Shown: positions 40,923-64,000 of the stretch, piece by piece
Position numbering within the stretch: position 1 is the first letter of the stretch
Layout of the letters: every line of letters starts with the position of its first letter
Assembly (NCBI RefSeq): GCF_026210795.1
Contig: NC_089431.1
Coordinates: 4,650,001-4,714,000, forward strand
Source of the DNA: Rhizophagus irregularis
Taxonomy: Eukaryota
DNA: 64,000 nucleotides
Direction: 5' to 3'
Notes under the pieces: model-generated
The model's database searches: none
What the model was told of the DNA's origin: nothing
What the model saw: only the letters and a program-made list of their open reading frames with translations
Program-made: the position numbers and the translations under genes

Positions 40923-42035
40923 ATGAATAAACAAATTAAAGATTAATTTTTTTTTAATGCATTTTCATTATTTATTTATTTATTATAATTCTTTATACAC
41001 AACAAAATATAATAGCATTTTTTTTTAGATTAGAGGATCATGCAGGAACAAGTTTAATTATAAATTTTTTCACACAATATATATATATATATATATTAAT
41101 ATTATATACGATCTTTTAATTTCCGGAATTAAATAAGAAATTTAACAAAAATCTAGAACGGCTCATAAATTACATATTGTAAAATACACTATTTTTTTTT
41201 TTAACATTTTTTAACACTAAACGTCAAATTTTTATAAGATCATTTTTAAAATTTTTAAAGAAATTTATTCTAATAAAAGAAAGAAAAAAATTATTTTATC
41301 GTTATTGACCTTAAAAAAAAAAACTTAACAATTAAAATATGACGCTATCTTAGAATTATTCAAGAAAGGTAAACAGAATAAGGATTAGATAAATAAAGCA
41401 GAAGAAAAAAATAATATAAATTTCTCATGTCATTTCTTTCCTAACTTTTAGCATATTTTTTCACTCATATTAAGAGGTTACTCATATTAAGAGGATGTTT
41501 AATGAAAGTTGTTTCATTCGGTTTAAATGATCGGCTTTTTGCACCGGTCCGCGCTAAGCCACAAAAAAAAAATTTAAAATTTAAATTAATAGATATAATT
41601 CTCCTGTCGAAATTTACTCAGCTTGGAAGTATTCAGATAAAATCGGCACAACCCGTTGTGTATCTTTAACCCTATAATAAAATGTAACAAGTAATACTAA
41701 TAATTCTGAAAAGGAACATTAGTATATAGTGCTCAGAACGAGTGTATAAGAAATTAAGCTAAATATCCAAGACATAACTAAACAAGTATTATTACACGAT
41801 CTACGAAAAACAACTTGATTTACCAAAAAACAATATGCACGCCGTGCATATGAATGAATATTCGGTGTTCTGCATAAATACATCATTGTACACTTTTAGT
41901 AAGAATTTTCCGTAAATCTAATGTAAAAAGTGTTGATCAATTTATACTATTGCGATAATGATGAACCGATTCTGCGCCAAAAAATAACGATATTTATTTA
42001 CTACAATTTTTTTCTTTTTTTATTCTTTTTCAAAA

Positions 42036-43475
42036 ATGGGCTATAATAAGCTATTATCAAAATTGGCAGAAAATATACTCGAAATTTTAGACGATGATGA
42101 ATATTATAATATTACAATTGAAGTTGGCGATGACCCTAACGTGAGAATATTTCGTGCTCACATGGTTATTTTAAAATATCGTTCTCCTTATTTGCGAAAA
42201 ATATTGTCGACCAATAAAAAAATTGACGGAACTTTGACAAGTATTAAATTACCAAACATTTTACCCGAGACTTTTCAAATAGTATTAAGGTAAAAAATAA
42301 AAGATAATGTAAATTAAATATATTTATATTTTTTTTTTTACTTACAATCGTTTTATTTTAGATATATTTATGGGGGGGAAATTTCTTTAGAAGAATATGA
42401 TATTTCAGATATCATTAAAATATTAATTGCCATCAAAGAACTTGGTCTTGAGGAATTAATTCCTTGTATAGAAACCTTTTTGATTAAAAATAAAAAAAAT
42501 TGTATGGTACAGAATTTTGATTTGATATATCGAATAAGTTTTGAAAACAATTCTTTCCAAGAACTTCAAAAATATTGTATCGAATTAATTTCCAAAGAGC
42601 CGAATAAGATATTTAATTCGCCAAAATTTTCTTCAATTCCAGAAAATCTTTTAATTACACTTATTCAAAATGAAAATATTCGAGTGAATGAAGTACAAGT
42701 TTGGGAACATGTGATTAAATGGGGTCTCGCTCAAAATCCCGAACTTTCCTCTGATCCTAAAAGCTGTTCAAAAGAAGATTTCAATACTTTAAAAAATACT
42801 TTACAACATTGTATTCCTTTTATTAGATTTCGTAACTTAACTTCCAAAGAATTTTCAAGCAAAGTATTGCCTTATAAAAAAGTTTTGCCAAAGGAATTAT
42901 ATAAGAAGTTATTGGATTATTTTTTGGGTAATGATAGTAACCAGATTATATCGAAAAATATTGATTCTAAAATTATTACATCTCAACATGCTGAATTAAT
43001 CTCAAGATGGGTCGATAGATTAGAAATTACAAACAAGATACCTCCTTTATACAATTTCGAATTATTATTTCGCGGTTCTCGTGATGGTTTTACGCCAAGT
43101 AAATTTCATGAAATTTGTGATAATAAGTCTCGTACTATCACGATTTTTAAAGTAAGCGGAAGTAGCGAAATTCTTGGAGGATACAATCCAATAAAATGGA
43201 CATCTGGTGGATTTAGTAGTACTAAAAATAGTTTTATATTCTCTTTTAAAAACGGTTATGATACTGAAAATTGTATTATAAGCCGCGTGAAAAATGGAGT
43301 GAAGGCTATATATAATAGTCCTTGTTTTTTACCATCATTTGGTAATGATGACTTATCATCAAATGGTTCAGTGATTTGTTGCAAGAGATCTAAAAAATCT
43401 TCTTATGAAAAACCGATCAGAGAAACAAGTAATGAAGATGAAATAGAAGAATTCGAGGTGTTTAGAATTTTTTAA
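42036..43475 (+). CDS. BTB/POZ-BACK-TLDc protein (2 exons)
   Basis: IEVGDDPNVRIFRAHMVILKYRSPY, intron, YIYGG, EVQVWEHVIKWG, LLFRGSRDGF, ILGGYNPIKW, EFEVFRI. Confidence 0.9.
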
Positions 43476-43885
43476 GATCGATTTTTAATTTTTCCATAAA
43501 GAATTAATGATGGTGTAAATTTCAAGTATAATATTTTTATAAATTAATCTTAAGAACATTTTTTTATTTATTTATGTATTATTTTTTTTTTTAATAAAAA
43601 AATAAAATAAAAAAAAAAAATTTAGTAGTTTTTAAGTCACATATCCTTGTGTTTAATTTTTACTGTCGCGTTCTGCCAAAGGGTAAATTATTTGCCGACG
43701 ATAAATCTTATTGGTAAATTTTATTGTTAATGTGTGCTGTGCAACTTATTTCTTGTGATCTTTGTGGAACTCGGATTCATTAATTTTCCATCCCGTTTAA
43801 TATAAAAGGGTTGACTATCCACAAGTTGGGTTGGAATTTTACATTCTTATTTAAAAAAAAAAAAAATTATATAGACTCGGTAATA

Positions 43886-45388
43886 ATGACTGATAATAAA
43901 CTTTTACCAAAATTATCACAAAATTTACTTGAAATTTTAGATGATGAAGAATATTATGATATTACGATTGAAGTTGGCAATGACCCTAACGTAAAAGTAT
44001 TTCGCGCTCATATGGTTATTTTAAATTATCGTTCTCCTTATTTGCGAAGAATTTTGTCAACTAATAAAAAGAAAAATGATGAAACTTTGACAAGCATCAA
44101 ATTACCAAATATTTTACCCGAAATTTTTCATATAATCTTAAAGTAAGAAATTATTTTAATAATATGATAAACGAACGTTATTTTGTTGTTGTTTTAATAA
44201 TATTATGATTTTAATTTTATAAACGTTTAATTTACTTTTAGATATATTTACGGGGGGAAACTTTCTTTTGAAGAATGTGATATTTCTGATATTATTAAAA
44301 TTTTAATTACCGCCAACGAACTTGGTCTTCAAGAATTAACTCCCTTTTTAGAAACCTTTTTGATAGAAAGCAAAAAAGACTCGATAGATCAGAATTTTGA
44401 TTTGATATATCAAATAAGTTTTGAAAACAATTCTTTTCCAGAACTTCAAAAATATTGTAATAAATTAATTTCCAAAGAACCGAATAAGATATTTAATTCG
44501 CCAAGATTTTCTTCAATTCCAGAAAAACTTTTGGTTACGATTATTCAGAATGATAATCTTCAAATGAACGAAGTTCAAGTTTGGGAACATGTGATTAAAT
44601 GGGGTCTTGCACAAAATCCTGAACTTTCCTCTGATCCGAAAAGCTATTCAAAAGGTGATTTCGATGCTTTAAAGAATACTTTACAACAATGTATTCCTTT
44701 TATTAGATTTCATAATTTTACTTCCAAAGAATTTTCAAAAAATATATTACCTTATAGAGAAATCTTGCCAAAGGAATTGTATGAAAATTTATTGAATGAA
44801 TTTTTGGATAACAACTACAAACCAATTAAAAAGTCGAACCCTCGTATAATTGAAGAGACTAAGGAAACGAATTCAAAGAATATTGATTCCAGAATTATTA
44901 CATTTCAACATACTGAATTAATATCAAAATGGATTGATAGATTAGAAATTACGGACAAGATAAAAAATATTTATGAATTTAAATTACTATATCGTAGTGA
45001 ATTTGATTTTCCAGGAAAATTCCATGAAATTTGTGATAATCAACCCGGTACTGTAACAATTGTTAAATTGAAAGGTAGTAACGAAATTCTTGGAGGGTAT
45101 AATCCAATAGAATGGAAATATGAAGAAAGTTATAGCGTTACTAAAGATAGTTTTATATTTTCGTTTAAGAATAGTGATAGTATTGAAAATCATATTTTAA
45201 GCCGTGTAAAGGATGAAGCAAAAGCTATATATAATGGAAACGATGGACCATCATTTGGTTTTAGGGACTTGCGTATATACGGGAATAAATTGAAATTGTA
45301 CTGCCGAAAAGCTTCTTACGAAAAACCGATCACGGGAGCGGACACTGTTATTGAAAAATATGAAGTATTCAGAATTGTGAAAGCTTGA
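43886..45388 (+). CDS. BTB/POZ-BACK-TLDc protein (2 exons)
   Basis: Same motifs and intron position as the neighbouring copies. Confidence 0.9.
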
Positions 45389-45747
45389 AGTATATTTTTA
45401 AACGCAACCTCTTTATTGTTTATTAAATTTATATATTCTTTTAATAAAAACTTTGATTCTCCATAATATTAATGAGCTACAGAAGTAATTTAATAAATTT
45501 CCATCAATCATTTAATGTGTCAAAGTAACAAAAGTATTTTTATATTGCCAATGATTTTACTAAGTAGAATTTTTAAATTTATTAAGTTATTAAATCGAGT
45601 TTTAAATTCGACCTACATTTTTATGGTAAAGATCTGCATCCTATTTAATAATATAAAAAGGCTTTCGACTATTTAGAATTTTCTAATTTCTTCTGAAAAA
45701 AAAAAAAAAAAAAAAAAATCGAAAAAAAAAATCGATATAAACAGATA

Positions 45748-47237
45748 ATGACTAATAAATTTTTACCAAAATTATCACAAAATTTACTTGAAATTTTAGA
45801 TGATGAAGAATATTATGATATTACAATTGAAGTTGGTAATGACCCTAACGTAAAAGTATTTCGAGCTCATATGGTTATTTTGAATTATCGTTCTCCTTAT
45901 TTACGAAGAATTTTGTCAACTAATAAAAAGAAAAATGATGGAACTTTGACAAGTATTAAATTACCAAATATTTTACCTGAAACTTTTCATATAATTTTGA
46001 GGTAAGATAAACGAACATTATTTTATCATTGTTTAACAAATATAATTTTAATTTTATAATCGTTTAATTTACTTTTAGGTATATTTATGGAGGGAAAATT
46101 TCTTTTGAAGAATGTGATATTTCTGATATTATTAAAATTTTAATTACCGCCAACGAACTTGGTCTTCAGGAATTAACTCCCTTTTTAGAAACCTTTTTGA
46201 TAAAAAGCAGAAAAGACTCGATAGAACAGAATTTTGATTTGATATATCAAATAAGTTTTGAAAACGATTCCTTCCTAGAACTTCAAAAATATTGTAATGA
46301 ATTAATTTCCAAAGAACCGAATAAGATATTTAATTCGCCAAGATTTTCTTCAATTCCAGAAAAACTTTTGGTTACGATTATTCAAAATGATAAACTTCAA
46401 ATGAGCGAAGTACAAATTTGGGAACATGTGATTAAATGGGGTCTTGCTCAAAATCCTGAACTTTCCTCTGATCCAAAAAGCTATTCAAAAGAGGATTTCA
46501 ACACTTTAAAGAATACTTTACAACAATGTATTCCTTTTGTTAGATTCCATGACTTAACTTCCAAAGAATTTTCAAACAACATATTACCTTATAAAAAAAT
46601 CTTACCAAAGGAATTATATGAAAATTTACTAAAAGATTTTTTGGATAATAATTACAAACCAATTAAAAAGTCAAAACCTCGTATAATTGAAGAGATCAAG
46701 GAAATAAATCCAAAAAATATTGATTCTAGAATTATTACATTTCAACATGCTGAATTAATATCAAAATGGATTGATAAATTAGAAATTACGGACAAGATAA
46801 GAAATCATTATGAATTTAAATTACTATATCGCAGTGGATTTGATGCACCTAAAGGATTCCATAAATTTTGTGATAATCAACCTGGTACTGTAACAATTGT
46901 TAAATTGAAAGGTAGTAACGAAATTCTTGGAGGGTATAATCCAATAGAATGGAAATCTGAAGGATGTTATAGCGTTACTAAAGATAGTTTTATATTTTCG
47001 TTTAAGAATATTGATAGTATTGAAAATCATATTTTAAGCCGCGTAAAGGATGAAACAAAAGCTTTATATAATGGAAATTATGGTCCGTCATTTGGTTATT
47101 GTGACTTGCGTATATACTGCTCTGAATATACGGATAAACTGGGAATTTACTGTAAAAAAATTTCTTACGAAGAACCGATCACGGGAGCGAACCCTGTTAT
47201 TGAAAAATATGAAGTATTCAGAATTGTGAAAGCTTGA
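45748..47237 (+). CDS. BTB/POZ-BACK-TLDc protein (2 exons), recent tandem paralog of 43886-45388
   Basis: High similarity including the 3' flank (45389-45747 vs 47238-47615). Confidence 0.9.
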
Positions 47238-47615
47238 AGTATATTTTTAAACGCAACTTCTTTATTGTTTATTTATATATTTTTTTAAATAAAAATAATA
47301 TTAATGAGCTACAGCAGTAATTTAATAAATTTAATAAATTTCCATCGATCATTTAATGAGCATGTCGAAGTAACAAAAGTTTCTTACGCTATTTATATTT
47401 CCAATGACTTTACTATGTAGAATTTTTAAAATTTATTTAGTCAAGTTATTATGCCTGTAAAATCGAGTTTTTCGTGTTGTTTGATTCGGCCTGCATTTTT
47501 ATGGTAACGATCTGCATCCTGTTCAATATAAAAGGCTTTCGACTATTTAGAATTTTCTGAAAAAAAAAAAAAAAAAAAAAAATATTTGAAAAAAAAAAAA
47601 TCGATATAACAGATA

Positions 47616-49117
47616 ATGACTGATAAATTTTTACCAAAATTATCACAAAATTTACTCGAAATTTTAGATGATGAAGAATATCATGATACTAAAATTGAAG
47701 TTGGTAATGATCCTAACGTAAAAATATTTCGTGCTCATATGGTTATTTTGAATTATCGTTCTCCTTATTTGCGAAGAATTTTGTCAACTAATAAAAGTAA
47801 TGACGGAACGTTGACACGTATTGAATTACCAAATATTTTACCCGAAATTTTCCAAATAATCTTAAGGTAATATTATAGAATATTTTGTTTTCATTTCTAT
47901 AGACTAATTTTGATCTTATAAATATTTTTATTTATTTTTTTTTTAGATATATTTATGGAGGAATACTTTCGTTAGAAGATTATGATGCTACAGACATTAT
48001 TAAAATTTTGATTGCCGCAAGTGAACTAAGTCTTCAAGAACTAATTCTTCATTTACAATCCTTTTTGATTAAACACAAAGTGAATTGGATGATGCAAAAT
48101 TTTAGTTTGATATACCAAACGAGCTTTAGAAACAATTCTTTCTTAGAACTTCAAAAGTTTTGTATGGAATTAATTTCTAAAAAACCGGAAAGAATTTTTA
48201 AATCACCTGAATTTACTTCAATTCCAGAAAAATCTTTAATTTCGCTTATTCAAAATAATAATATTCGTATGAGTGTGGCTCAGGTTTGGGAACATGTGCT
48301 TAAATGGGGTATTGCCCAGAATCCTGAACTTTCTTCAGATCCTTCAAACTATTCAAAGGATGATTTTATTGCTTTAAGGAAAACTTTACAACATTGTATT
48401 CCTTTTATTAGGTTTCGTAATCTAACTCCCAAAGAATTTTCTAGCAAAGTGTTACCTTACAAAAAGGTTATACCTAAAGAGTCGTATAAAAATTTAATTA
48501 AATATTTTTTGGATCATGATTATAATCAGATCAACAAGTCAGAACCTTCCAAAAGTATCGATTCAACAATTATTTCAGATCAGCATGTTGAATTGATTTC
48601 GAAATGGATAGACAAATTGGATGATGTTAATGCATCAGATACGGAAACTCTTGCTTCTATGACTTCAAAATCAAATTCGTTATATGAATTCAAGTTATTA
48701 TTTCGTGGACCTCGTGATGGACTAACACCTGATGAATTCTATGAAATTTGCGATAATCAGTCTTTTACTGTAACAGTTATTAAAGTGAAAAATAGTAACG
48801 AAATTCTTGGAGGGTATAATCCAATTTCATGGTATAACAATCCGACATACGGCATCACTAATGATAGTTTTATATTCTCTTTTAAGGATAAGAATGATTA
48901 TATTTTGAGTCGTGTAAAAGATCCAAAGTTTGCTATAGTTAATAGCACTTTTTATGGTCCATCATTTGGTAATGGTGATCTTATATTAAGAGGAAACAAC
49001 TTTTATAATAATAGTTATTGTAGTAAACATTCTTACGAAAGAGCAATCAGGGAAACTGAAGGAATATTTTCGGTAAAAGAGTATGAAGTATTTCAAATTG
49101 TAAAGAATTCATTCTAA
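47616..49117 (+). CDS. BTB/POZ-BACK-TLDc protein (2 exons)
   Basis: FRAHMVILNYRSPY, VWEHVLKWG, ILGGYNPISW, GPSFG, EYEVFQI. Confidence 0.9.
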
Positions 49118-49646
49118 AGAATTATTTTATATTTAACTTTTTAGAAATTTCTCTTATTCGGGAAATTATTGAATTTTTATTACGCTCTGATAGATTTTAT
49201 TAATACTATTTTTTTTAAAAACATTTTTTTTAAATATTTGGTAGCTAAAGTAATTATGAAAATAAAAAAAATAAAAAAAAAATTGATTTATAAATTTAAT
49301 TTATATATTCTTATTTACGTAATTTAATGACTAAACATTGAAAAATAATTAAATTCACGTAATAATTTTAAAATAAAATTGGTTAAATGTTTATGAAAAA
49401 AACTATCACTGAATCTGGATAAATTTACGACTATACTTGTCGGCGATAGAATTTCTTATTAATAGTTATAGTTTTATGAATTAAATTACAGTTCTAAATT
49501 GTTGAGCTTTATTGTAATATTGTACTGTATATATATACCGTAATTTACTTTATTTATAGAATAAATACATTGTGCATCGAACAAACTATCACATGGTGTA
49601 CGCGATATGATTTAGTAATAATGCTTGACAATTTTAACCACATTCT

Positions 49647-52600
49647 TTAGGAATCGATTTCTTTTTCTATACCTTCGTCTTGTTCATATTGTGCAAGAAT
49701 TTTTTTAGCATCGTCATTTCCACCTTCAGCTGATTCTTTAAGTAACATAAAGGCCTTTTCTTTATCAATATCAACTATAATCCCATGAAGAAAATAATAC
49801 CCTAGTTTATATTTCCCGTTTACACATCCTTTATCAGCCGCTTGTTTATAATAATCAAATGCTCTAATGAGATTTTTATTAACACCTTTACCTATTTCAT
49901 AAATATTTCCTAGTTCATATAATACAAAATCATTATCATTTTCTGCGGATTTTTTATACAAATAATTAACTAGATTTAAATCACTTATTATATTTTCTTC
50001 ATTATCATAAATTGATTTAAGAAATTCTATATTTTCTTTTTCAGTTATCTTATCATATAATTCAAATCCTTTTTCTTTATCAATTTCAGTCCCAATTCCT
50101 TTTATATAACAATATCCAAGACTAAGTTTCGCGTTTAAATATCCCTTTTCAACTGATTTTTTATATAATTCAAATGCGTCAGTTTCATTTTTATTTACAC
50201 TTATTCCTAATTCATAACATATACCTAAATTATCATATGCAACTTCATCTCCATTTTCTGTTGCTTTTTGTAACCAATAAACTGCCTTTTCCAAATCTTT
50301 TTCAGCTTTATTACCCCAGAAATATAAGATTCCAAGATTATTTTGTGCATTAATACTTCCCTTATCAGCTGCAATTTTGTATAACTCAAAAGCTTTTGCT
50401 TTATTAATTTCAGTTCCGATTCCTTTATCATAACAATAACCAAGTTGACATTGAGCATTTAAATATCCTTGATCAGCTGATTTATTATAATATTCAAAGG
50501 CTTTGATTTTATCTTTTACAGTACCTTTACCATTTTCATATAAAATTCCAAGATTACTTTGTGCAATACATGATCCTTTATCTGCAGCAATTTTATATAA
50601 TTCAAACGCCTTAAATTTGTCAACTTCAGTACCAATTCCTTTTTCATAACAATAACCAAGTTGACATTGAGCATTTAAAAATCCTTGATCAGCTGATTTT
50701 TTATATAATGTAAAAGCTTTAACTTCATCTTTTTCAATTACTTCACCATTTACATATAAATTTGCAAGATTATATTGGCCAACACTAGAATCTTTTTCAG
50801 CAGCAATAGTGTACAATTCAAATGCTTTTGCAAGATTAACTTCAGTTCCAATTCCTAAAGAATAACAATATCCAAGTTCAAGTTGTGCATTTAAATAATC
50901 TTTATCAGCAGATTTTTTATAATATTCAAATGCTTTAATTTCATCTTTATCTACACCCACTCCTGATTTATAACAATTTCCTAAACTATATTCTGCTACT
51001 TCATATCCACTTTCTGCTGCTTTATTATACCAGTAAATAGTTTGTTCTAAATCTTTTTCTATTCCTTTACCATTTTTATATAAAATTCCAAGATTATATT
51101 GTGCAATAGTATGATTTTTTTCAGCCGCAATTTTATAAATTTCAAATGCTTTTGTTTTATTAGTTTCAGTACCAATTCCACTATCATAACAATATCCAAG
51201 TTCAAATTGAGCATTTAAATAACCTTGATCAGCAGATTTTTTATAATATTCAAATGCTTTAATTTCATCCTTTTCTACACCTTTTCCATATTTATAACAA
51301 CCAGCTAAATTATATACTGCCACTTCATTTCCATCCTGTGCTGCTTTTTTATACCATTTAAAAGCTTCCTCCAAATTCTTTTCAACCCCTTCACCTTTTT
51401 CATATAAACAACCAATACTGTTTTGTGCATTTATATTTCCATTTTCAGCAGCAATTTTATATAATTCTAATGCTTTTATTTGATTAATCTCAGTACCAAT
51501 TCCATTATTATAACAATAACCAAGCTCAAATTGAGCATCTGAAAAATCTTTATCAGCAGATTTTTTATAATATTCAAATGCTTTAACTTCATCTTTTTCA
51601 ACTTCTAATCCAAATTTATAATGATTTCCTAAATAATATTGAGACATTTCACAACCATTTTCTGCTGCTTTATTAAACCAATAAAATGCTTGTTTTAAAT
51701 CTTTTTCTATACCATCACCATATTCATATAAAAGCGCTAAACTATTATATGCAATATTATATTCTTTTTCAGCAGTAATTTTAATTAATTCATATGCTTT
51801 TATTTTATTAATTTCAGTTCCAATTCCATTAATATAACAATAACCAAGTTCAAATTGAGCTTCTAAATATTCTTGATCAGCAGATTTTTTATAATATTCG
51901 AATGCTTTACCTTCATCTTTTTCAACTATAAACCCTAATTGATAATAATTACCTAAATTATATTGTGCTATTTTACATCCATTCTCTGCTGCTTTATTAT
52001 ACCAATAAATAGCTTTATTATATCTTTCATAATTTTTTATAATATCACCATTTTGATATAAAATACCAAGATTACATTGAGCATTAACATGATCTTTTTC
52101 AGCAGCAATTTCATAAAATTCAAATGCTTTTAATTTATTAATTTCAGTTCCAATTCCAAAATCGTAACAATAAGCAAGTTCAAATTGAGCATTTAAAAAT
52201 TCTTGATTAGCAGATTTTTTATAATATTCAAATGCTCTTTTTTCATCTTTTTTTACAAATTCACCACTTTTATAATAATTACCTAAATTATATTGTGCAG
52301 ATTTATTTCCATTTTCAGCTGCTTTACTATACCAATAAATAACTTTATCAAAATCTTTTTCTATTCCAATTTCATTTAAATAACAATTACCCAATATATA
52401 TTGTGCAAGAGGATATTCATTTTCAGAAGATTTTAAATACCATTTAAAAGCATTTTTATAATCTTGATTTATTCCTATTCCATTTTGATAACAAATACCT
52501 AAATTATATTGAGCATGTAAATCACCTTCATTAGCAGCTTTTAAATACCATTCAAAAGCTTTTTTTTCATCTTTAATTATTCCAATACCATTTTGATAAC

Positions 52601-53351
52601 AATAACCTAAATTATTTTGTGCATTAGAATTTCCACCTTTTGCAGATTTTAAATAAAATTCAAATGCTTTAAATTCATCTTTCTTTTTTCCTACACCATG
52701 TTGATAACAATAACCTAAATTATTTAATTCTATTAATTCATTCTTTTCTAATAATAATTGATTTTCATTAAAATCATCTTTATTATCTTGAGATTCAAAA
52801 TATTTTTCCATATTAATTAATTCATCTTTACATATATTAATTTTTAATCCATTAAAATTTTCAAATTGATTATATGACATAACATGATGAACATTTTCTA
52901 AAATTTTAAATTCTTTTGAAATCATAATTTTTTTATCTAAAATAATATCTTTATAATAATAAAATGATAATAAATATTTTGAAATAATAATATTAAGTAA
53001 TTGATAAGTAGATTTTAATTTTTTATTTTCATCATTTTCATAATTTTTAATTGATTTTAAATAATATATTAAAATATCATCATTATCATTATCATCATCA
53101 TCATAACCTATACCATTTTCATAAAAAAATCCTATTAAACTTGAAAACCAATTTTCATTCTCTTCATGTTCTTTCATTATTTTTAAAAAAATCCTTGTAT
53201 CTTTTTCATTATAATTAAAATAATCTTGGATCCATTCCGTTAAAGTATTTTTAAAATTTTTATAATTTTCTATGTTTATGATTTGACGATAAAATTCTTT
53301 TAAAAATTCTTTTAAAAAATTTTCATCATCATTTGAAATATTTGACGTCAT
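49647..53351 (-). CDS. Intronless Sel1-repeat (HCP-like) protein, 1234 aa
   Basis: More than 25 repeats of about 36 aa with the pattern AQxxLGxCYxxGxGxExxxxKAFExYxKxA. Confidence 0.92.
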   Translation of the reverse strand: MTSNISNDDENFLKEFLKEFYRQIINIENYKNFKNTLTEWIQDYFNYNEKDTRIFLKIMKEHEENENWFSSLIGFFYENGIGYDDDDNDNDDILIYYLKSIKNYENDENKKLKSTYQLLNIIISKYLLSFYYYKDIILDKKIMISKEFKILENVHHVMSYNQFENFNGLKINICKDELINMEKYFESQDNKDDFNENQLLLEKNELIELNNLGYCYQHGVGKKKDEFKAFEFYLKSAKGGNSNAQNNLGYCYQNGIGIIKDEKKAFEWYLKAANEGDLHAQYNLGICYQNGIGINQDYKNAFKWYLKSSENEYPLAQYILGNCYLNEIGIEKDFDKVIYWYSKAAENGNKSAQYNLGNYYKSGEFVKKDEKRAFEYYKKSANQEFLNAQFELAYCYDFGIGTEINKLKAFEFYEIAAEKDHVNAQCNLGILYQNGDIIKNYERYNKAIYWYNKAAENGCKIAQYNLGNYYQLGFIVEKDEGKAFEYYKKSADQEYLEAQFELGYCYINGIGTEINKIKAYELIKITAEKEYNIAYNSLALLYEYGDGIEKDLKQAFYWFNKAAENGCEMSQYYLGNHYKFGLEVEKDEVKAFEYYKKSADKDFSDAQFELGYCYNNGIGTEINQIKALELYKIAAENGNINAQNSIGCLYEKGEGVEKNLEEAFKWYKKAAQDGNEVAVYNLAGCYKYGKGVEKDEIKAFEYYKKSADQGYLNAQFELGYCYDSGIGTETNKTKAFEIYKIAAEKNHTIAQYNLGILYKNGKGIEKDLEQTIYWYNKAAESGYEVAEYSLGNCYKSGVGVDKDEIKAFEYYKKSADKDYLNAQLELGYCYSLGIGTEVNLAKAFELYTIAAEKDSSVGQYNLANLYVNGEVIEKDEVKAFTLYKKSADQGFLNAQCQLGYCYEKGIGTEVDKFKAFELYKIAADKGSCIAQSNLGILYENGKGTVKDKIKAFEYYNKSADQGYLNAQCQLGYCYDKGIGTEINKAKAFELYKIAADKGSINAQNNLGILYFWGNKAEKDLEKAVYWLQKATENGDEVAYDNLGICYELGISVNKNETDAFELYKKSVEKGYLNAKLSLGYCYIKGIGTEIDKEKGFELYDKITEKENIEFLKSIYDNEENIISDLNLVNYLYKKSAENDNDFVLYELGNIYEIGKGVNKNLIRAFDYYKQAADKGCVNGKYKLGYYFLHGIIVDIDKEKAFMLLKESAEGGNDDAKKILAQYEQDEGIEKEIDS

Positions 53352-55494
53352 TTTTTTTTTGGGTTTCTATTTTTTTTTGAAAATAAATAAATAAATAAAT
53401 TAATAAGTAGAACAATATTAAAAAAAAAAATTTTTTTTTTATTATACGAAAGATAGTTGTGGTTAACGTTAAAGTAAACACAATCTAATTACTAATCGCT
53501 CAAAATAGAGTAGTAAATAAATAAGTAAAAATAAAAAAAAAATTTCTTTTTCTTTGTTAAAAAAAAAATCCTTTTTTGTTTAAAAAAAAAGCTGAGGGGA
53601 CGCAGTCACGCAGTTATTATTTGGATTGACAAAAACTTGGATGTGTAACTTGTGGTACCAATAATTTTATTGTAAGGGCTTCGGCACGGCATTCTCTATT
53701 TATTTGTGCTACGCACTTTATATTAAAATACACATCATTTTAATGGAAATATGTAAAATAATAATATCCGAAATAATATCCAAAAGAGGTATAAAAAAGG
53801 AGGGATGGGTGTTACACTATTACCAGCGAAATAAAAATAAAATACAATTATAAAATTGAAAACCGTATATGTACCGATTGTATTATATATTGTTGGGATC
53901 TTATAAATTAATAAAGACGTTTAATAAAAGAATTTAAGGTAATATATTATGCAGTACAAGAAAGTTTTAAACTTTGAACGAAATCAAAGACATAATCTAC
54001 CGCAGAATTTGCATAACATTACTGCGGTTACAGTTACGACTGTGTAAAAATATACTGTACCTCATCACACAATTTTTATTTTATATGAGAGGTATAATCC
54101 TCGCCACATCTTTACGTAATGAATGATAGAATGACCTTACGAGGACGTATGGTGGTTATACTGTATATGAATTTAATAATTTACTGTACTATACTTATTT
54201 ATTGTAACCTAATTTTGGTATAATAATATATTATTTAGGGTCATAAAAAAAATATAAATTCTTTCAAACAATTTTATAAAATAATTAAAATAATTTTAAA
54301 TATAAAGTGTTAATGTATAAAAACATTTAACTAAATAACAGATAAATTAAATAATCAATCTAATCCATATTTCACGATTTCACGAGTATTTCACGCATAA
54401 ATTTTATTTTTTATAATACCGTAAAAAAAACATTTTAGCGAAATGAAAGCCGATATTTTTATGAGACATCCAATATTGAAAACGTTATTATAAGTAACAT
54501 TAATTCCTATTGGTCACCGCAGTATTCTTACAGTTATTAGATTGGGGGATATTGGTCTTCGACCGATATCTCTTTCCCCATTCAATAACTATTTATTGTA
54601 ATTAACAATCTCTAAATTTAGAATATCCCGAGTTTAACTAAGCTTAGGAACATTTTAACCATTTTTAAAAACAGAACCGAGGTCGACGAGTCGAGGTATT
54701 CAAAAAATTTTTTTATCGATCAACAATCATGTAACTTTGAGGCTCCCGGCTCCCAAATGAGATTCCTCTTTATAATATTCGGATAAGAGCATTATTTAAA
54801 ATAGGTATCACTCATAAAAATGGGCATATAATTATTAGTTCTGTTGAAATTTGCATAAAAATATTATACACAAAGGCTTTCTAAGCTTTCTAAAAGATGG
54901 ATACTTAAATTTTAGTATAAATTTCGCTTAAACATATAAATGACATGTGAAGACTTCATATTGAATTTGTTTACTTTGTTTATTTAATTTCTCGATCTAT
55001 TCATTTATGGGATATGGAACATCCAATATATGCCTTCGTAGTCTTTACGCCATATAAAGAACGCTATAACATTTCCTGTTAATTATTGTTCTTATAAGTT
55101 ATAACCCCATAAATAATGATACTTTTGATGGAATTATTATACTAACTTTACTTTACTATTATATAATGATAGTAAGCGATGAAGTTAGATTAGAGTTAGG
55201 ATATTTTCTGCCACAACGCACCATTCTTATTTTTTTTGCTTATTCTGGGAAAAAGTTAATCGTAATATTATTATTAGTTAACATAGGAAATAGAAAATCA
55301 ACACGTATCTTACTCGTATCTTATAAAATAATTTTAAATATTAAAAAATGGATATGATTATATAATTTATTATAAATCAACAAAAATAATAAAACACAAA
55401 TTTCTAGTAAAATATTTTTTTCAAAATTTTACATAATTTGAAATACATTATTATGGTTAGTCTTAAACCGATTTGGCCATATTTATTATCGATA

Positions 55495-56944
55495 CCAATT
55501 TTAAATATTTCAAGTTCTAAAGAGTTTGGATAACCAATTTTACTGATCTGTTTTTTATAAGTTGTATAAGTTGTATTTTCACCAAAAATTTGGTATAATC
55601 GTAGGTCACCATTACCAAATGATGGACCCTTACTATATCCAACGTTCTTACTTATAGATTCCTTAGATTCCTTTTCATTCTTTACGCGACTTAAAATGTA
55701 ATTTTCAATATATTTACTATCAAATGAGAATGTAAAATTATCCTTAGTAATACCATAATTGCGTTACTATCTTCAACTTTAACCAATGTTACAGTATGAG
55801 GTTGACCTATATAAATTTCATGGAACTTTTTAAACCTGTTAAACCTCTCATCACGAGAATCACGAAGTAGTCGTTTATCTGTACCGTAATTTCTAATCTA
55901 TCAATCCATTTTGAAATTATTTCAACATGTTGAGATGCAATTATCTTAAAATGTTATTTAATCTTGTTAGTTGAAATCTTTTGCTTATCCAATAAATTAT
56001 TATCATATAATACCTGATGCAAATGATATATATATTCTTGTGACTCGCTATCACTATTTGCAATATCTAATGCAGATTTTTGTTTTGAAATAGATATATA
56101 TATATAGGGTAATGATTCCTTGCTGTCATTATTCAAAAAATAATTTAGTAAATCATTATATAATTCCTTTGGTAAGATTTTTTTATAAGATTTACTTTAT
56201 TCAAAAATTCCCTTGAAGTTAAATTACGAAATCTAATAAAAGGTATACAATGATGTAAAGTATTCTTTAAAACATTAAAATCATCTCTTAAAAACTAAGC
56301 TTGTAGGATCAGAAGAAAGTTCTGGATTTTGAGCGAGTCCTCATTTAATTACGTGTTCCTATACTTCAATTTCTTTCATTTGAAAATTATCATCTTGGAT
56401 AAGCGTGAATAAAAGTCTTTCTGGAATTGTAGAAAAATTTGGAGAATTAAATATCTTTTCTGGCTCTTTAGAAATGAAATCAGTACAATATTTTTAAAGT
56501 TCTGGGAAAGAATCGTTTCTAAAGCTTATCTGATATACTAATTCAAAATTTTGTTCCATCCAGTTTTTTTTTGTTTTTCAATTAGCTAGGTTCATTAGTA
56601 ATAACCAAGATTTTAAATGATATCTGAAATATCATATTCTTCCAAAGAAAGTCTTCCTCATAAATATATCTGAAAAAAAAAATCACTTTGTACCTTAATA
56701 ATATGTGAAAAAAATCGGGTGAAATATTTGGTAATTAATGTGTTAAAATTCAAACATTTGTCTTTTATTAGTTGATAAAATTCTACGCAAATAAGGAGAT
56801 CGATAATTTAAAATAACCATATGGGCACGAAATACTTTCACATAAGGGTCACTACCAACTTCAATTGTAATATCATAATATTCTTCATCATCTAAAATTT
56901 CAAGTAAATTTTGATAATTTCGGCAAAAGTTTATTATCAACCAT
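55495..56944 (-). pseudogene. BTB-BACK-TLDc pseudogene, tandem copy of 57347-58982
   Basis: Colinear similarity to the adjacent gene with multiple frameshifts, stops and deletions. Confidence 0.85.
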
Positions 56945-57346
56945 TATAATCTTGAAAGGTTCACCACGACACCACCGGTTAAAATTACCTCCGTAAATGC
57001 AGATCAGATGTGTAACAAAGATCAGTTCCACAAACAAACTTAGCGTTTAAGTAATTAAATTTATCCTTACGACTTGATAGTTGAGCCAGTACAATTTCCG
57101 ATCATTTAAATAAACCGGTTAGCCTTTAGATTGATTTAATGCTTTATATTCTTCCACTTACGCAATTGATACATGCATTTGACGTGTACTACGTAAATAC
57201 AATTGCTCCATATATAAAAAATAATTATATAATTTTTTTTTATCAGGATAAATATACAGATTTTTTTTTATATCAAGATATTGAAATATAACTTTTTTTT
57301 TTATTAATAAAATATTCGATATTTATTACAAAATCAACAGACCATT

Positions 57347-58982
57347 TTACTCAATTTTAAATATTTCAATTTCTAAAAAGCCTGAATAATCGGCTTTGCT
57401 GATCAGTTTTTCATAAGTTCTAAGTTTACAATTGATTCCTAAATAAGTATAAACTTGGTATAAACTCAGGTCGCCATCACCAAATGATGGACCTATACTA
57501 TATCTATCGATCTTACTTATAGCTTTCTTTTCATTCTTTACGCGACTTAAAATGTAATCTTCAATATCACCATTATTAAATGAGAATATAAAACTATCCT
57601 TAGTAACACCATAATTACCATCAAATTTCCATTCAATAGGATTATATCCTCCAAGAATTTCGTTATTACCTTCAGCTTTAACTAATGTTACAGTATGAGG
57701 TTGATCTACACAAATTTCATGGAACTTTTTAAACCTGTTAAACGCCCCACTAGATCCATCACGAGAATCACGATATAATAATTTGAATTCATAGGAAGTA
57801 GTCGGCTTGTCTGTAATTTCTAGTCTATCAATCCATTTTGAAATTATTCCAGCATGTTGAGGTGTAATTATCTTAGAATCAATATTTTTAATCTTGTTAG
57901 TTGAAACATTTTGCTTATTATTATCATGTCCCATTAATCGTCTCGTAGATGTACCTGATGCCAATGATACATATTTTTGTGACTCTTTATCACTGTTTGT
58001 AACCCTAGCAATATCTAATGTAGATTTTTGTTTTGGAACAGATATACGAGGTAATGATTCCTTGATGTCGTTTTCCAAAAAATGATTTAATAATTCTTTA
58101 TATGATTCCTTTGATAAAATTTTTTTATAAGGCAATACCTTCTTTGAAAATTCTATTGAATTTAAATTATGAAATCTAATGAAAGGAATACATTGTTGTA
58201 AGGTGTTTTTTAAAGTATTGAAATCATCCTTTGAAAAATTTGTAGGATCAGAAGGAAGTCCTGGATTTTGAGCGAGTCCCCATTTAATTACATATTCCCA
58301 TACTTGAATTTCTTTCATTTGAAGATTATCATTTTGGATAAGCGTGATTAGAAGTCTTTCCGGAATTGTAGAAAAATTTGGAGAATTAAATCTCTTTTCT
58401 GGTTCTTTATAAATTAAATCAGTACAATATTTTTGAAGTTCTAAGAAAGAATCGTTTTCAAAACTTGTCTGATATATTAATTCAAAATTTTGTTCCAACC
58501 AGTTTGTTCTGTTTTTAATTAAAAAAGATTCTATATAAGGAATTAACTCTTGAAGGTTAAGTTCGTTAGCAATAACCAAGATTTTAATGATATCTGAAAT
58601 ATCATATTCTTCCAAAGAAAGTTTTCCCCCATAAATATATCTGAAAAAGAATTAGTTGTTTGTAATTAAAAATATATACATACACAAGTTAACGCAAAAA
58701 AGAATAAAATATAAAACTCTTGTACCTTAATAATACATGAAAAAATTCAGGTGAAATATTTGGTAATTTAATATTTGTCAAAATTCCATCATTTTTCTTT
58801 TTATTAGTTGATAAAATTCTACGCAAATAAGGAGAACGATAATTTAAAATAACTATATGGGCACGAAATACTTTAACATAAGGGTCACTGCCAACTTCAA
58901 TTGTAATATCATAAAATTCTTCATCATTTAAAATTTCAAGTAAATTTTGTGATAATTTCGGTAAAAATTTATTATCAGCCAT
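57347..58982 (-). CDS. BTB/POZ-BACK-TLDc protein (2 exons)
   Basis: MADNKFLPKLSQNLLEIL, FRAHIVILNYRSPY, intron about 58641-58724, ILGGYNPIEW, GPSFG. Confidence 0.9.
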
Positions 58983-59270
58983 TATAATCTTGAAAGGAAA
59001 GGGTGAGGAAAAAATTTGTTCAAACTTCCGAGCTTTTTTTTTGAACAAAATTGATCGGTTAAATTACCTCCGTATAGTAACTTAATGTGCAACAGGGATC
59101 ATACGTTCCACAAACTAACTCATAAAGCATTAAATCGCAAATTTAATTCCACTTACGCAATTATTTGCTGATCCTCATGTGATGGGTAGAAATATTGTGT
59201 AACAATTGCGGGGCTATGATTTATAATTAAAATGAAAACGTTCTGAATCTCACGTTCTCAATTTTCAAAA

Positions 59271-60790
59271 ATGTCAAAAGGACACTTTACTCCCGGAAAA
59301 CTTGTTGCTATTGGTAACCTGGTGGCAGAACCTCATTATGGTCTTTTTTCACAAGATTGGTGGTATTATTCTGATTCCCAAATTCAAGATTCTAATACCC
59401 ATGCTATTCCAATAAGACTTGGCTTTCAAGTTGCTTTAAACTCAATCAATAACACTTCATTATTAGAATAGTTTGCAACTTGGAAAATCCAAATACACCA
59501 GGTTTATTTGTGAAGGGAAGGAATTAATAGTGGAGTTTTATCTAGTTCTTCTGCTGCTATTTACACCATTTATGGATGTGTATTTGGTAATAAAAATAAA
59601 ACAAAATATCTGGGAGCAACAATGTTAGGTTTTCATGATTCTTACATGATTCAACAAATGCTCAATAATGTGGATTTCCATCCTTTTACAATTTGTTTAT
59701 ATAATATTACAATTATTATATCATCTATTCCAGATAATAATATTACGAAGGGTTTGCAACTAGTTTTATGTATTAATATAAACAAAAACAAAGTGTAATA
59801 TGACAGAAGATCAAGGAAGGATTATTTTCAATTAGTATTTTTCAAGATGGTTAAATAGTAAACCAATTTCAAGACGTAACAGCTTCTTCAGTTTGGAATC
59901 AAACCCAATTATTGCAGAATTGTAATGGATCAATCTTTTTGGAATTAATCATCCACTTGTGCGATTTAAATTTAAAGAATGTTATGAAAGACTATTTCTA
60001 AGACCTGCACCCTTGATGATTGGAATAATGAAAGAATCATGCAATACATGTTCAAATTATACCTAAAAAAGCATGTACCCAGAAATGATTAACTTTGGTA
60101 TCATACTTTAAGTTGTTCGTATAATCAAAAAAGTACTATTATTGAAATAAAAAGCTTTATTCATGATGTTTATAATGATGATCATGAATTAACATTCATG
60201 AACTTTGGGCATGGAGAGTAATACTTGAAGCAATTGGATTTAAAAATATTACTCCATTTGAAAGGGACGTATCTGATATAAGTATTATTATAAAAAATAT
60301 TACATTATTTATTCACTATCTAATTAAAAAATATCCCATAGATGGAATTTTGGAATCGTGCTAAGGATCCTAAAGGTGATAGTGATTTGTTTTCAAATGG
60401 ATTTTTGAATACTACGCTAAATTCAACAATTAGAAATGATGAATTTGAAAATTAAAAGACACTGCAAATGATTTTTGGTATTCATTATGTGAAAGTCTTG
60501 ATGCCAATCCTAATGGTTCAAATGGAAAAATTCAAATTTTATCATGAAAAATCTACAGGTATGATAAATTATAATTGTATAATACATAATAAATAAAGAA
60601 ATATAACTAAATACAAAATCTCACTTAGGTTTCACCAAAAATAGTTCACACTACTCGTGAACATCACCATAAAAATGGTCCAGGCTGTAAGGTTCTTGAT
60701 AAACCTATTATTGTTTGTAAATGAATGGCTAAATTTAAAGAAAGAGAATTTTAATTATTTTTTGCTGATAAAGAAAATATAAATGTTACG
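59271..60790 (+). pseudogene. Decayed multi-exon gene of unknown, possibly transposon-related, family
   Basis: Protein-like stretches (GKLVAIGNLVAEPHYGLFSQDWW, SPKIVHTTREHHHKNGPGCKVLDKPII) broken by many stops and frameshifts. Two GT-AG intron-like gaps near 60280-60341 and 60559-60629. Confidence 0.5.
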
Positions 60791-61375
60791 ATTATTTTAT
60801 ACACACGAGCAATTCCATGTAATGGTGCGTCTAATATTAATAAAAGAAATATGATTTTAATAATTGAAATGCTATAAATAATAATAAGCGGGAAGATAAA
60901 TAAAATAAATGTAGTAAATATAGTACCCAGTTCTAACAATGAATAAATTGACTCTAGCACTTGAATAATAAAAGGTTATTAAGTTATTTATAAAAGAATT
61001 GCAACAATGTTGTAGCAAATTTACATTTTGAAATAGTAAACATTGTTTGGTTCTAGAATATTCAGGCTCATAATTCCCTTACTGTTGATATTCGGATGAT
61101 ATATTCTTGTTGTAAAGTTAAGCTAATATGAACATAATATAAGTATGTAATAAAATATATCAAAATGTATAAATAAAATGTATTAGTTTTAAAGGTTTAA
61201 CTCATGATCAACAAGAAAGTTGTATTTTTATAATTTAGTGATGAAAATGAAAATTGGTATCTTCATTTTGCATAAATAATATTACACAAACTTCTATATA
61301 TATTCGAATAAAGGGCGTTTAAATGTATTTACCCTATTTTTTTTTTAAAAAGAATTTCAATAAAATTATTTAGTA

Positions 61376-64000
61376 ATGGCTCAAAGTAATGATAAAGGTA
61401 AAAGCATATAATATGAATATAGATATCTAATACAAATTGAAATTGCTCTAAAATTTTTTTCAAACCAAATTTGTAATATAATGAAACTAGTTTCAAAAAT
61501 TGAGAAAGATAAAGGTAAGAAAATTATTAACAGCTTGTAAATTATAAAAATATAATTTAAATTTTTTAAACTATTTCTAAAAATTATTTTACTATATTAG
61601 CTCGTAAGTAATAGGTTATCCTATAATCGGAATGATAATTAAATTACTTCTTTTATTTTATATAACCAAATAATTTATTTTAATATTACTAATATTATTA
61701 TAGTTGGTAGTTATTAGCTATTTTTTTTATTGTATTTTACATGATATTTTAAATAACTAAATTTTCTATTAATATAATTGTTTAATAATTATTAATATTA
61801 TAGAAAGTAAGTATTTAATTTTATATTAATTTAAAAGTATTAAATATAATTTAAATTAATAATATTATTTATTTAAATAATTAGATTGTAAGTTACTGTA
61901 TATACTTAATAATTATAATATTTTTTCTAATTGATTATAATTACTTTACTTTATAATTATTATTAATTAATAATGCTACAGGGTGTAAGTTATTTATTTA
62001 ATCTATTATATTTATACATATAATTTAACTAAATTCTTTATTTAAAAAATTATTTTATATTTCTTTTAGTTGGTAAGTTATAAGTTATTTATTTAATTCT
62101 ATTATATTTATATGATGTTTACGTATAATTTAAACTAACTAAATTCTTTATCTAAAAAATTATTTATTTAATAATATAGCGAGTATGTTATTTTTATATT
62201 TATATAATATTTACGTAAATTTAAACTAACAAATTCTTAACTTAAAAAAATATTCAAATATTTTAGATCGTAAGTAATTTATTATATTATATAATATTTA
62301 CATATAATTTAAACTAACTAAATTCTTTATTTAAATTATTTTGTAATTTCTTTTAGTTAGTAAGTTATAAGTTATTTATTTAATTCTATTATATTTATAT
62401 AATGTATACATATATTTTAAACTAACCAAATTCTTTATTTAAAAAATTATTTATTTAATAATATAGCTAGTATGTCATTTATTTAATTCTATTATATTTA
62501 TATAATATTTACATATAATTTAAACTAACTAAATTCTTTATTTAAAAATTATTCAAATATTTTAGATCGTAAGTGATTTATTATCATATTTATAATATTT
62601 ACATAACATATAATTTAAACTAACTAAATTCTATATCAAATATTTTAGATTGTAGGTAATTTATTATATTTATATAATATTACATATAATTTAAACTAAC
62701 TAAATTCTATATATAAAATTAAATATTTTAGATTGTAAGTAATTTATTATATTTATATAATAGCTTCACATAATTTAAACTACTAATTAAATTCTTTATT
62801 TAAAAAATTATTCAAATATATTAGCTTGTAAGTAATTTATTAGTATATTTATATAATATTTACATATAATTTAAACTGATTAAATTTTTTATTTAAAATA
62901 TTATTCAAATGTTTTATATTGTAAGTAATTTATTATTATATTTATATAATATTTAAATATAATTTAGACTAACTAAATTCTTTATTTAAAAAATTATTTT
63001 GTAATTTCTTTAGTTGGTAAGATATAAGTTATTTATTTAATTCTATTATATCTATATAATATTTACATATAATTTAAACTAACTAAATTCTTTATTTAAA
63101 AAATTATTTATTTAATAATATAGGCAGTATGTTATTTATTTAATTCTATTATATTTGTATTATGTTTACATATAATTTAAACTAACTAAATTCTTTATTT
63201 AAAAAATTATTTATTTAATAATATAGGCAGTATGTCGTTTTTAATTCTATTATATTTATATAATATTTACATATAATATAAACTAACTAAATTCTTTTAT
63301 TTAAAAAATTATTTATTTAATAATATAGGGAGTATGTTATTTATTTAATTCTATTAATATATTTATATAATTATTATAATATTTACATATAATTTAAAAA
63401 TTCATTACAATATTTTAGATTGTAAGTAATTTATTATATTTATATAATATTTAAATATAATTTAAACTAACTAAATTCTTTATTTAAAAAATTATTCAAA
63501 TATTTTAGACTGTAAGTGATTTATTATATTTATATAATGTTTACATATAATTTAAACTAACTAATTCTTTATTTAAAAATTATTCAAATATTTTAGATTG
63601 TAAGTAATTTATTACATTTATATAAAATTTACATATAATTTAAACTAATTAAATTCCTTATTTAAAAAATTATTCAAATATTTTAGATTGTAAGTAATTT
63701 ATTATTTATATAATATTTACATATAATTTAAACTAACTAAATTCCTTATTTAAAAAATTATTTTGTAATTAGTTGGTAAGATATAAGTTATTTATTTAAT
63801 TCTATTATATTTATATAATGTTTACATATAATTTAAACTAACTAAATTCTTTATTTAAAAATTATTCAAATATTTTAGATTGTAAGTAATTTATTATATT
63901 TATATAATATTTACATATAATTTAAACTAACTAAATTCTTTATTTAAAAAATTATTTTGTAATTTCCTTTAGTTGGTAAGTCATGAGTTATTTATTTAAA
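61376..64000 (+). other. Putative gene or spliced transcript made of consecutive 3-nt micro-exons (runs off window)
   Basis: 27 AG|NNN|GT(A) units from 61534 to 63975, spaced about 65-110 bp apart, most preceded by an (A)CTAAY branch-point motif. Confidence 0.6.
61985..64000 (+). repeat. AT-rich tandem array of about 80-110-bp units (each unit = intron + triplet)
   Basis: Recurrent tttacatataatttaaactaactaaattctttatttaaaaaattatt core with three unit subtypes. Confidence 0.92.

Follow-up and report, generated by a model that had tools for sequence, protein, structure and literature searches.

Is an AT-rich tandem repeat at the edge of a genome segment satellite DNA, or is it part of a gene built one codon per exon? 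The question is raised by positions 61376-64000 of a 64,000-nt stretch of the Rhizophagus irregularis genome (hereafter the window). This region is called as a tandem repeat with a period of ~90 bp, its last 2 kb have a GC content of 11%, and an earlier note, made from the letters alone, had proposed that it holds a chain of about 27 single-codon micro-exons. Our analysis indicates that it is probably the 5′ end of an expressed type of gene, likely encoding a kinase. Two short exons open this gene, and behind them stands a series of three-base exons, of which five are spliced in order in close copies and 21 are predicted to be.

A Strand-Specific Chain of Three-Base Units

All 27 triplets of that proposal are present where it placed them, and 26 of them fit AG-NNN-GT; the exception, at 62918, has the acceptor AT instead of AG, as had been recognized. 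The triplet at 61534 was dropped on RNA evidence (see below), and the corrected array, which begins at 61601, consists of 26 three-base units with AG in 25 and GT in all 26 (Table 1). On the forward strand of 61500-64000, the pattern YAG-N3-GT[AG][AT]G has 23 matches, whereas any other spacing from 0 to 30 bases gives zero or one match per spacing, and the reverse strand of the same interval gives none at any spacing from 0 to 30. A pattern of three consecutive units matched six times in the window compared with zero times in 100 shuffled sequences. The branch-like motif that had been ascribed to every unit is less regular: CTRAY lies 10-45 nt before the acceptor in only 20 of 27 introns, those lacking it being introns 1, 2, 4-7, and 21. 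The repeat-unit motif had no matches in viral and prokaryote sequence collections, and the X1 contigs have a depth of 56,674 on the repeat unit, a value that suggests numerous copies without counting them.

Table 1. Features of the gene's 5′ end and of the micro-exon array (window positions)
Feature	Position	Strand	Remarks
Exon 1, coding part	61376..61397	+	ATG; 22 nt; ends in phase 1; RNA depth ~20-30 in X22 and X23
Intron 1	61398..61490	+	93 nt, GT..AG; joint in 11 (X22), 16 (X23), and 13 (X24) reads; low intron depth
Exon 2	61491..61514	+	24 nt; phase 1 to phase 1; RNA joints and depth; missed by the earlier note
Intron 2	61515..61600	+	86 nt, GT..AG; cut out precisely in one X2 contig; encloses rejected triplet 61534
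Micro-exon 1	61601..61603	+	letters 1-3 of RNA loose ends behind 61514; X2 junction
Micro-exon 2	61704..61706	+	letters 4-6 of RNA loose ends
Micro-exon 3	61804..61806	+	letters 7-9 of RNA loose ends
Micro-exon 4	61885..61887	+	letters 10-12 of RNA loose ends
Micro-exon 5	61982..61984	+	letters 13-15 of RNA loose ends
Homogenized part, 21 candidate micro-exons	62070..63975	+	three cassette classes; 80-107-nt introns with shared core; splicing predicted from the sequence
Starts in homogenized part	62070, 62180, 62267, 62357, 62467, 62566, 62649, 62732, 62825, 62918, 63014	+	
Starts in homogenized part, continued	63124, 63227, 63329, 63419, 63509, 63597, 63687, 63773, 63879, 63973	+	
Unit with acceptor AT for AG	62916..62920	+	predicted to be skipped, frame unchanged
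Start of next intron	63976..64000	+	array and gene extend past the window end; kinase exons predicted downstream

Splicing at the 5′ End

RNA data were taken from three poly(A) runs (X22, X23, and X24) covering two samples of one study, with about a quarter of each run used, and from contigs of two further studies, X3 and X2, whose status as RNA is a guess. Reads were aligned to the window no further than position 62100, and unaligned read tails were analyzed over 61230-61640. The donor at 61398, which had been thought to lead to the triplet at 61534, is joined in RNA to 61491 instead. Triplet 61534 was rejected as an exon: it would sit behind a 19-nt intron and is absent from the reads. Intron 1 is retained in a minority of reads and contains an in-frame ATG at 61481. 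The upstream stretch 59200-60750 was likewise rejected as part of the gene, having little RNA and no joint to exon 1. Two further features of the RNA map lie in this vicinity: a small CT..AG joint at 60509-60599 occurs in a few reads, and a 50-nt stretch at 61070-61119 is matched by 58-98 reads per run from another transcript.

In close copies of the gene, splicing joins the first five triplets in their genomic order. Behind 61514, the first 15 letters of the unaligned tails are units 1-5 in genomic order in 32 reads, 11 from X22 (agreement 0.96) and 21 from X23 (agreement 0.82). Because most of the reads carry an A>G change at 61505 (10/11 and 17/25 reads), they were assigned to another allele or a close paralogue. 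The 15 letters that follow unit five in the tails are unlike units 6-10 and are mostly one triplet that none of the window's 26 units has. Over 61550-62005, the RNA depth does not exceed 1, and no read matched units 6-26 of the window's own allele among reads aligned up to 62100; we infer the splicing of these units in that allele. A search of RNA for consecutive triplets, suggested in the earlier note as a check, therefore bore out the one-codon-per-exon architecture for units 1-5, joined in phase 1 in close copies, and left the window's later units unmatched. The X3 contig represents a paralogue with a shorter leader and the identical five triplets, and two other RNA loose ends represent further paralogues, so several paralogues are expressed. 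One X2 contig lacks exactly the intron 61515-61600 while keeping both neighboring introns, as expected of an intermediate of one-at-a-time intron removal or of a precise intron loss in DNA. Two simpler accounts were rejected: recursive splicing through zero-length exons, since the triplets are kept in the reads, and plain satellite DNA, since the splice architecture is strand specific and the triplets are spliced in the RNA of close copies.

Reading Frame and Predicted Product

Counted from the ATG at 61376, exons of 22 and 24 nt place the triplets in phase 1, so that every codon is split by a junction, with one base before it and two after it. The phase-1 joining proposed from the sequence is thus the one set by the RNA junctions, and the frame stays open through all 26 units, although an open frame is weak evidence by itself, since phase 1 stays open in 57% of cases when the order of the triplets is shuffled. 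A stronger signal comes from pooling the window with eight AT-rich metagenome arrays (see below): phase-1 stops occur at 0 of 100 adjacent junctions compared with 6.5 expected from random pairing, these arrays being mutually related and chosen by pattern. In the same pool, phase 2 has stops at 15 junctions, and phase 0 has stops in 2 of 115 triplets. The commonest of the 100 pooled phase-1 residues are Asp (11), Tyr (10), Trp (9), Asn (9), Lys (8), and Phe (8), and by inspection, the phase-1 N terminus is polar and charged. The predicted product is a soluble kinase in which a conserved short leader is followed by a hypervariable segment in which Tyr, Trp, Phe, Asp, and Asn are abundant.

The triplets had also been read in phase 0 as a transmembrane segment. 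That the triplets encode such a segment, or a signal segment, is consistent with phase 0 being open and hydrophobic and with the Gly/Ile/Leu/Met-rich N termini of some database models, but with the ATG as start codon, as opposed to some other start, the RNA junctions set phase 1, and L032 and L066, both metagenome loci at which the exit from the array is visible, need phase 1. We regard a phase-0 product as most improbable. The N termini in question, found in the kinase-family models P0029, P0068, P0082, P0091, P0012, P0103, and P0143, resemble a phase-0 reading of an array and are possibly off-frame predictions.

Probable Link to Kinase Genes

The window ends inside the array, before any kinase exon, and its gene was assigned to a likely family, the Rhizophagus tyrosine-kinase-like kinases, through related loci. 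Metagenome contigs were scanned for three consecutive units, which matched at least 105 loci, most of them microsatellites; a filter kept at least 18 runs of units, and the statistics use eight AT-rich loci, with six GC-rich arrays and L010, L016, L057, and L074 left out as not comparable. The GC-rich arrays (L015, L042, L046, L056, L058, and L077; 55-58% GC) resemble chains of 3-nt exons at a spacing of ~90-95 nt with up to 27 units and apparently come from another eukaryote; that of L058 lies downstream of a 436-aa frame that is kinase-like by eye.

The L032 array leads in phase 1 into exons that encode PF07714 and PF00069, and that of L066 passes through a 1-nt exon into PF07714/PF00069 exons (kinase E value 6e-32); neither of these loci, the ones with a visible array exit, showed NACHT or ankyrin domains. 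The 1-nt exon of L066 is a candidate, AG-T-GTAAGT, near position 1258 on the reverse strand between the array and the kinase exon, and would turn phase 1 into phase 2, as the kinase frame requires. Compared with the window's units, the L066 introns have a median score of 114, against 44 for shuffled sequences and 138 within the window, and on this sequence comparison, we consider them homologous to the window's introns. Only three of the eight AT-rich arrays, L066, L038, and L052, are clearly above shuffles in such comparisons, L038 and L052 moderately so, and the other five are at or near the shuffle level. The intron family of the array is accordingly tied to kinase exons elsewhere at one locus, L066, which carries a stop within its first kinase exon; from this stop, some array copies are probably dead. 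At L075, the first exon is likewise 22 nt long and similar to that of the window, and two more exons come before the triplets.

Protein searches point the same way. The window's leader, of the form M-A-x-x-N-D-K-V-S, agrees in 9 of 9 residues with the annotated Rhizophagus kinases P0020 (POG73983.1), P0121, P0139, and P0141, and the translation of one RNA loose end corresponds to the second exon of P0139. A search that used the kinase exon of L066 as query found 1049 proteins, and the leader motif starts 9 of the best 120. The joined window peptide has a weak match to P0020 (E value 0.005 among 120 proteins). A profile of the leader gave 13 matches beyond its input, of which 5 have a kinase Pfam domain, 2 have kinase-exon sequence, and 6 are without kinase. 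The named homologues of the related loci are all from Rhizophagus, and the exon-1 motif had no match in the metagenome contigs.

The leader-bearing database models without a kinase, one of them with DUF8211, together with the position of the downstream DNA beyond the view of the window, would suit a chain that belongs to a small orphan protein or to some other domain. We think this quite improbable: the orphan models end in what looks like read-through into the next intron, and leader, intron family, and phase all indicate the kinase subfamily.

A further possibility is that only the five old units are real, the part from 62070 being a satellite-like expansion that is removed as one intron, or the window's copy being a pseudogene allele. 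Such an expansion would carry any motif along passively, no read fits units 6-26 of this allele, the acceptor at 62918 is lost, and the L066 array leads into an interrupted frame. Against this, the close-copy reads do not end at unit five but go on for a median of ~80 letters, of which the 15 shown are further open codons; arrays with homologous introns exit in phase into kinase exons; phase-1 stops are missing from the pooled junctions; and AG and GT are kept almost without exception although the introns differ by 6-35%. Taken together, these observations make the satellite or pseudogene account improbable, and they favor a spliced chain at the head of a kinase gene.

Related Gene Models in Databases

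Leader, kinase-exon, and profile searches found no database protein with the full micro-exon segment. A wider profile search gave 11 matches, 7 of which are hypothetical orphan proteins of 51-68 aa that look like exons 1 and 2 read through into the following intron, and of the 75 homologues that contain the WIPY exon, 47 begin within 25 residues of it. The expectation that gene finders would miss such genes is supported, since database models skip, truncate, or split at the array, and annotation would appear to divide or shorten these kinase genes there.

How the Array Changes

Introns 1-6 share 62-70% mutual identity, a value to be read against the AT-rich composition of this DNA, whereas later introns are up to 94% alike. 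From 62070 onward, the units fall into three flank classes, which were assigned by visual inspection of the sequences compared here. The intron end before a triplet and the intron start after it belong to one class in each of the 21 units; for the start and end of one and the same intron, this is so in only 9 of 20. Because the flanks are locked across the triplet and mixed within the intron, the moving unit is likely an exon-centered cassette that is swapped in the shared intron core. This pattern points to a likely shuffling of one-codon cassettes at the DNA level, and the sequence also suggests that some multi-unit blocks in the array were likely copied. Gain, loss, or exchange of one unit keeps the frame and in phase 1 changes two neighboring residues.

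Variety could instead arise in RNA, with the array spliced but its units skipped in different combinations, as described for the Tuber nank genes. All units are 3 nt and exon 2 is 24 nt, so each is frame preserving, and none of the 300 possible unit skips in the window creates a stop in phase 1; the Tuber precedent and the lower agreement of the X23 tails are also compatible with skipping as the main source. However, skipping was not seen in the X22 consensus tails, which keep their high agreement over ten triplet lengths (30 letters), paralogues, which the variant table of X23 shows, would account for the mixture in that run, and the cassette mosaics are changes in DNA. We therefore find it rather unlikely that alternative splicing supplies most of the variety; the two sources are not exclusive.

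Whether the variety serves a function is a separate matter. In classes A and C, the triplets are more variable than the sequence beside them, which is not the case in class B; given this exception and the constraint on the flanks themselves, positive selection for variety is no more than a possibility. The chain might be spliced and translated with no adaptive role, its introns multiplying by slippage and its peptide being a tolerated low-complexity linker. The small number of triplet types (8 ATT and 5 TTG among 26 units), the block duplications in class order, the low expression, and the lack of a successful selection test would all fit such a linker. On the other side, paralogues share a motif that spans units 1-5 and differ completely in the residues that follow it, a costly chain of more than 26 introns recurs at many loci, and similar arrays are found on non-self recognition genes in Tuber. 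We regard a peptide free of adaptive role as possible, though doubtful.

Surroundings of the Array

The domains encoded by neighboring genes are BTB, BACK, TLDc, and Sel1, a combination known from expanded gene families in arbuscular mycorrhizal fungi (PMC8647823). They include a tandem BTB-BACK-TLDc gene cluster at 42035-59063, in which some genes are broken, and a 1239-aa Sel1-repeat frame at 49647-53366. A second exon-cassette array lies at 26741-28960 on the forward strand and consists of about ten candidate exons of 42 or 51 nt with near-identical introns and GTAAGT donors, preceded by a phase-1 first exon (ATG 26741) and followed by a Cys-rich last exon from 28749. Next to it, 1.28-kb inverted repeats that are 99.4% identical (28981-30262 and 39550-40827) enclose ~9.3 kb with an internal 1.23-kb direct repeat (30666-31898 and 36475-37708); judged by this repeat structure, the element at 28981-40827 is probably a large transposon with long terminal inverted repeats.

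Discussion

The introns of the array, 78-107 nt long, are likely defined and cut out one at a time, so that each triplet would become the end of a growing upstream exon; the X2 contig may represent one such intermediate. Variety would likely be generated as cassettes, each comprising an intron end, a triplet, and the start of the following intron, are duplicated, lost, and exchanged by recombination in the shared intron core, with point changes adding to it and every change being frame neutral. By analogy with Tuber, the hypervariable stretch may set a binding specificity, for example in sensing non-self or a partner, a suggestion that we offer tentatively. More speculatively, and with somewhat less confidence, arbuscular mycorrhizal fungi could possess a range of so far hidden kinase receptors in which the recognition segment is assembled from one-codon exons and altered as nearly identical introns recombine. 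Such a cassette system at the level of codons would give an aromatic-rich variety like that of binding sites, would serve the recognition of non-self or partners, and would have arisen in parallel to the Tuber arrays.

If this kinase subfamily does have an unannotated hypervariable N-terminal segment, many of its gene models would be truncated or split, some DNA filed as unclassified repeat would be coding, and strain-specific recognition would have a concrete candidate, one open to comparison between genomes. The array is also a natural test of a spliceosome that has to deal with dozens of introns separated by three bases.

The architecture as such has a precedent. No account of codon-sized micro-exons in Glomeromycotina or in kinases came up in the main texts of the openly available literature; the main text of a long-read annotation preprint (10.1101/2022.10.19.511543) contains no match for "micro" or "kinase", and the parts of PMC6123716, PMC8647823, and PMC11121469 that were accessible report no such micro-exons. 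In the expanded genes of the model mycorrhizal fungus, the motif that occurs most often is that of the PF07714 kinases (PMC6123716). The expanded PF07714 family of R. irregularis (PMC6123716, PMC8647823) is similar to the window's gene in that the same leader residues are present and homologous arrays lead into PF07714 exons; in the accessible parts of both accounts, micro-exons go unmentioned.

Schistosome micro-exon genes, with which the earlier note compared the array, resemble it in their runs of short, frame-preserving exons. As far as the excerpt of 10.1101/2023.06.21.545858 shows, they have exons of 3-81 bp, introns of up to 5 kb, and secreted products, whereas the exons in the window are uniformly 3 nt, the introns are 78-107 nt, and the used frame has no hydrophobic leader. 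Closer are the codon-sized micro-exons of the Tuber NACHT-ankyrin (nank) genes (Iotti et al. 2012, Fungal Biol 116:261, as cited in PMC4986451, PMC3689799, PMC10197012, and PMC13449251), for which the citing papers describe extensive alternative splicing. On these second-hand descriptions, the two systems differ in that the window's array belongs to Glomeromycotina and would form the N-terminal part of a likely kinase, neither NACHT nor ankyrin domains having been seen, and in that alternative splicing was not seen in the consensus read tails and there are signs of DNA-level cassette shuffling. The retention of many consecutive 3-nt exons in mRNA, a trait of the nank genes, is seen here for five exons in close copies among 26 candidates. 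The likeness, so far as those papers convey it, is that in each case tens of 3-bp exons diversify a protein segment in an expanded fungal gene family.
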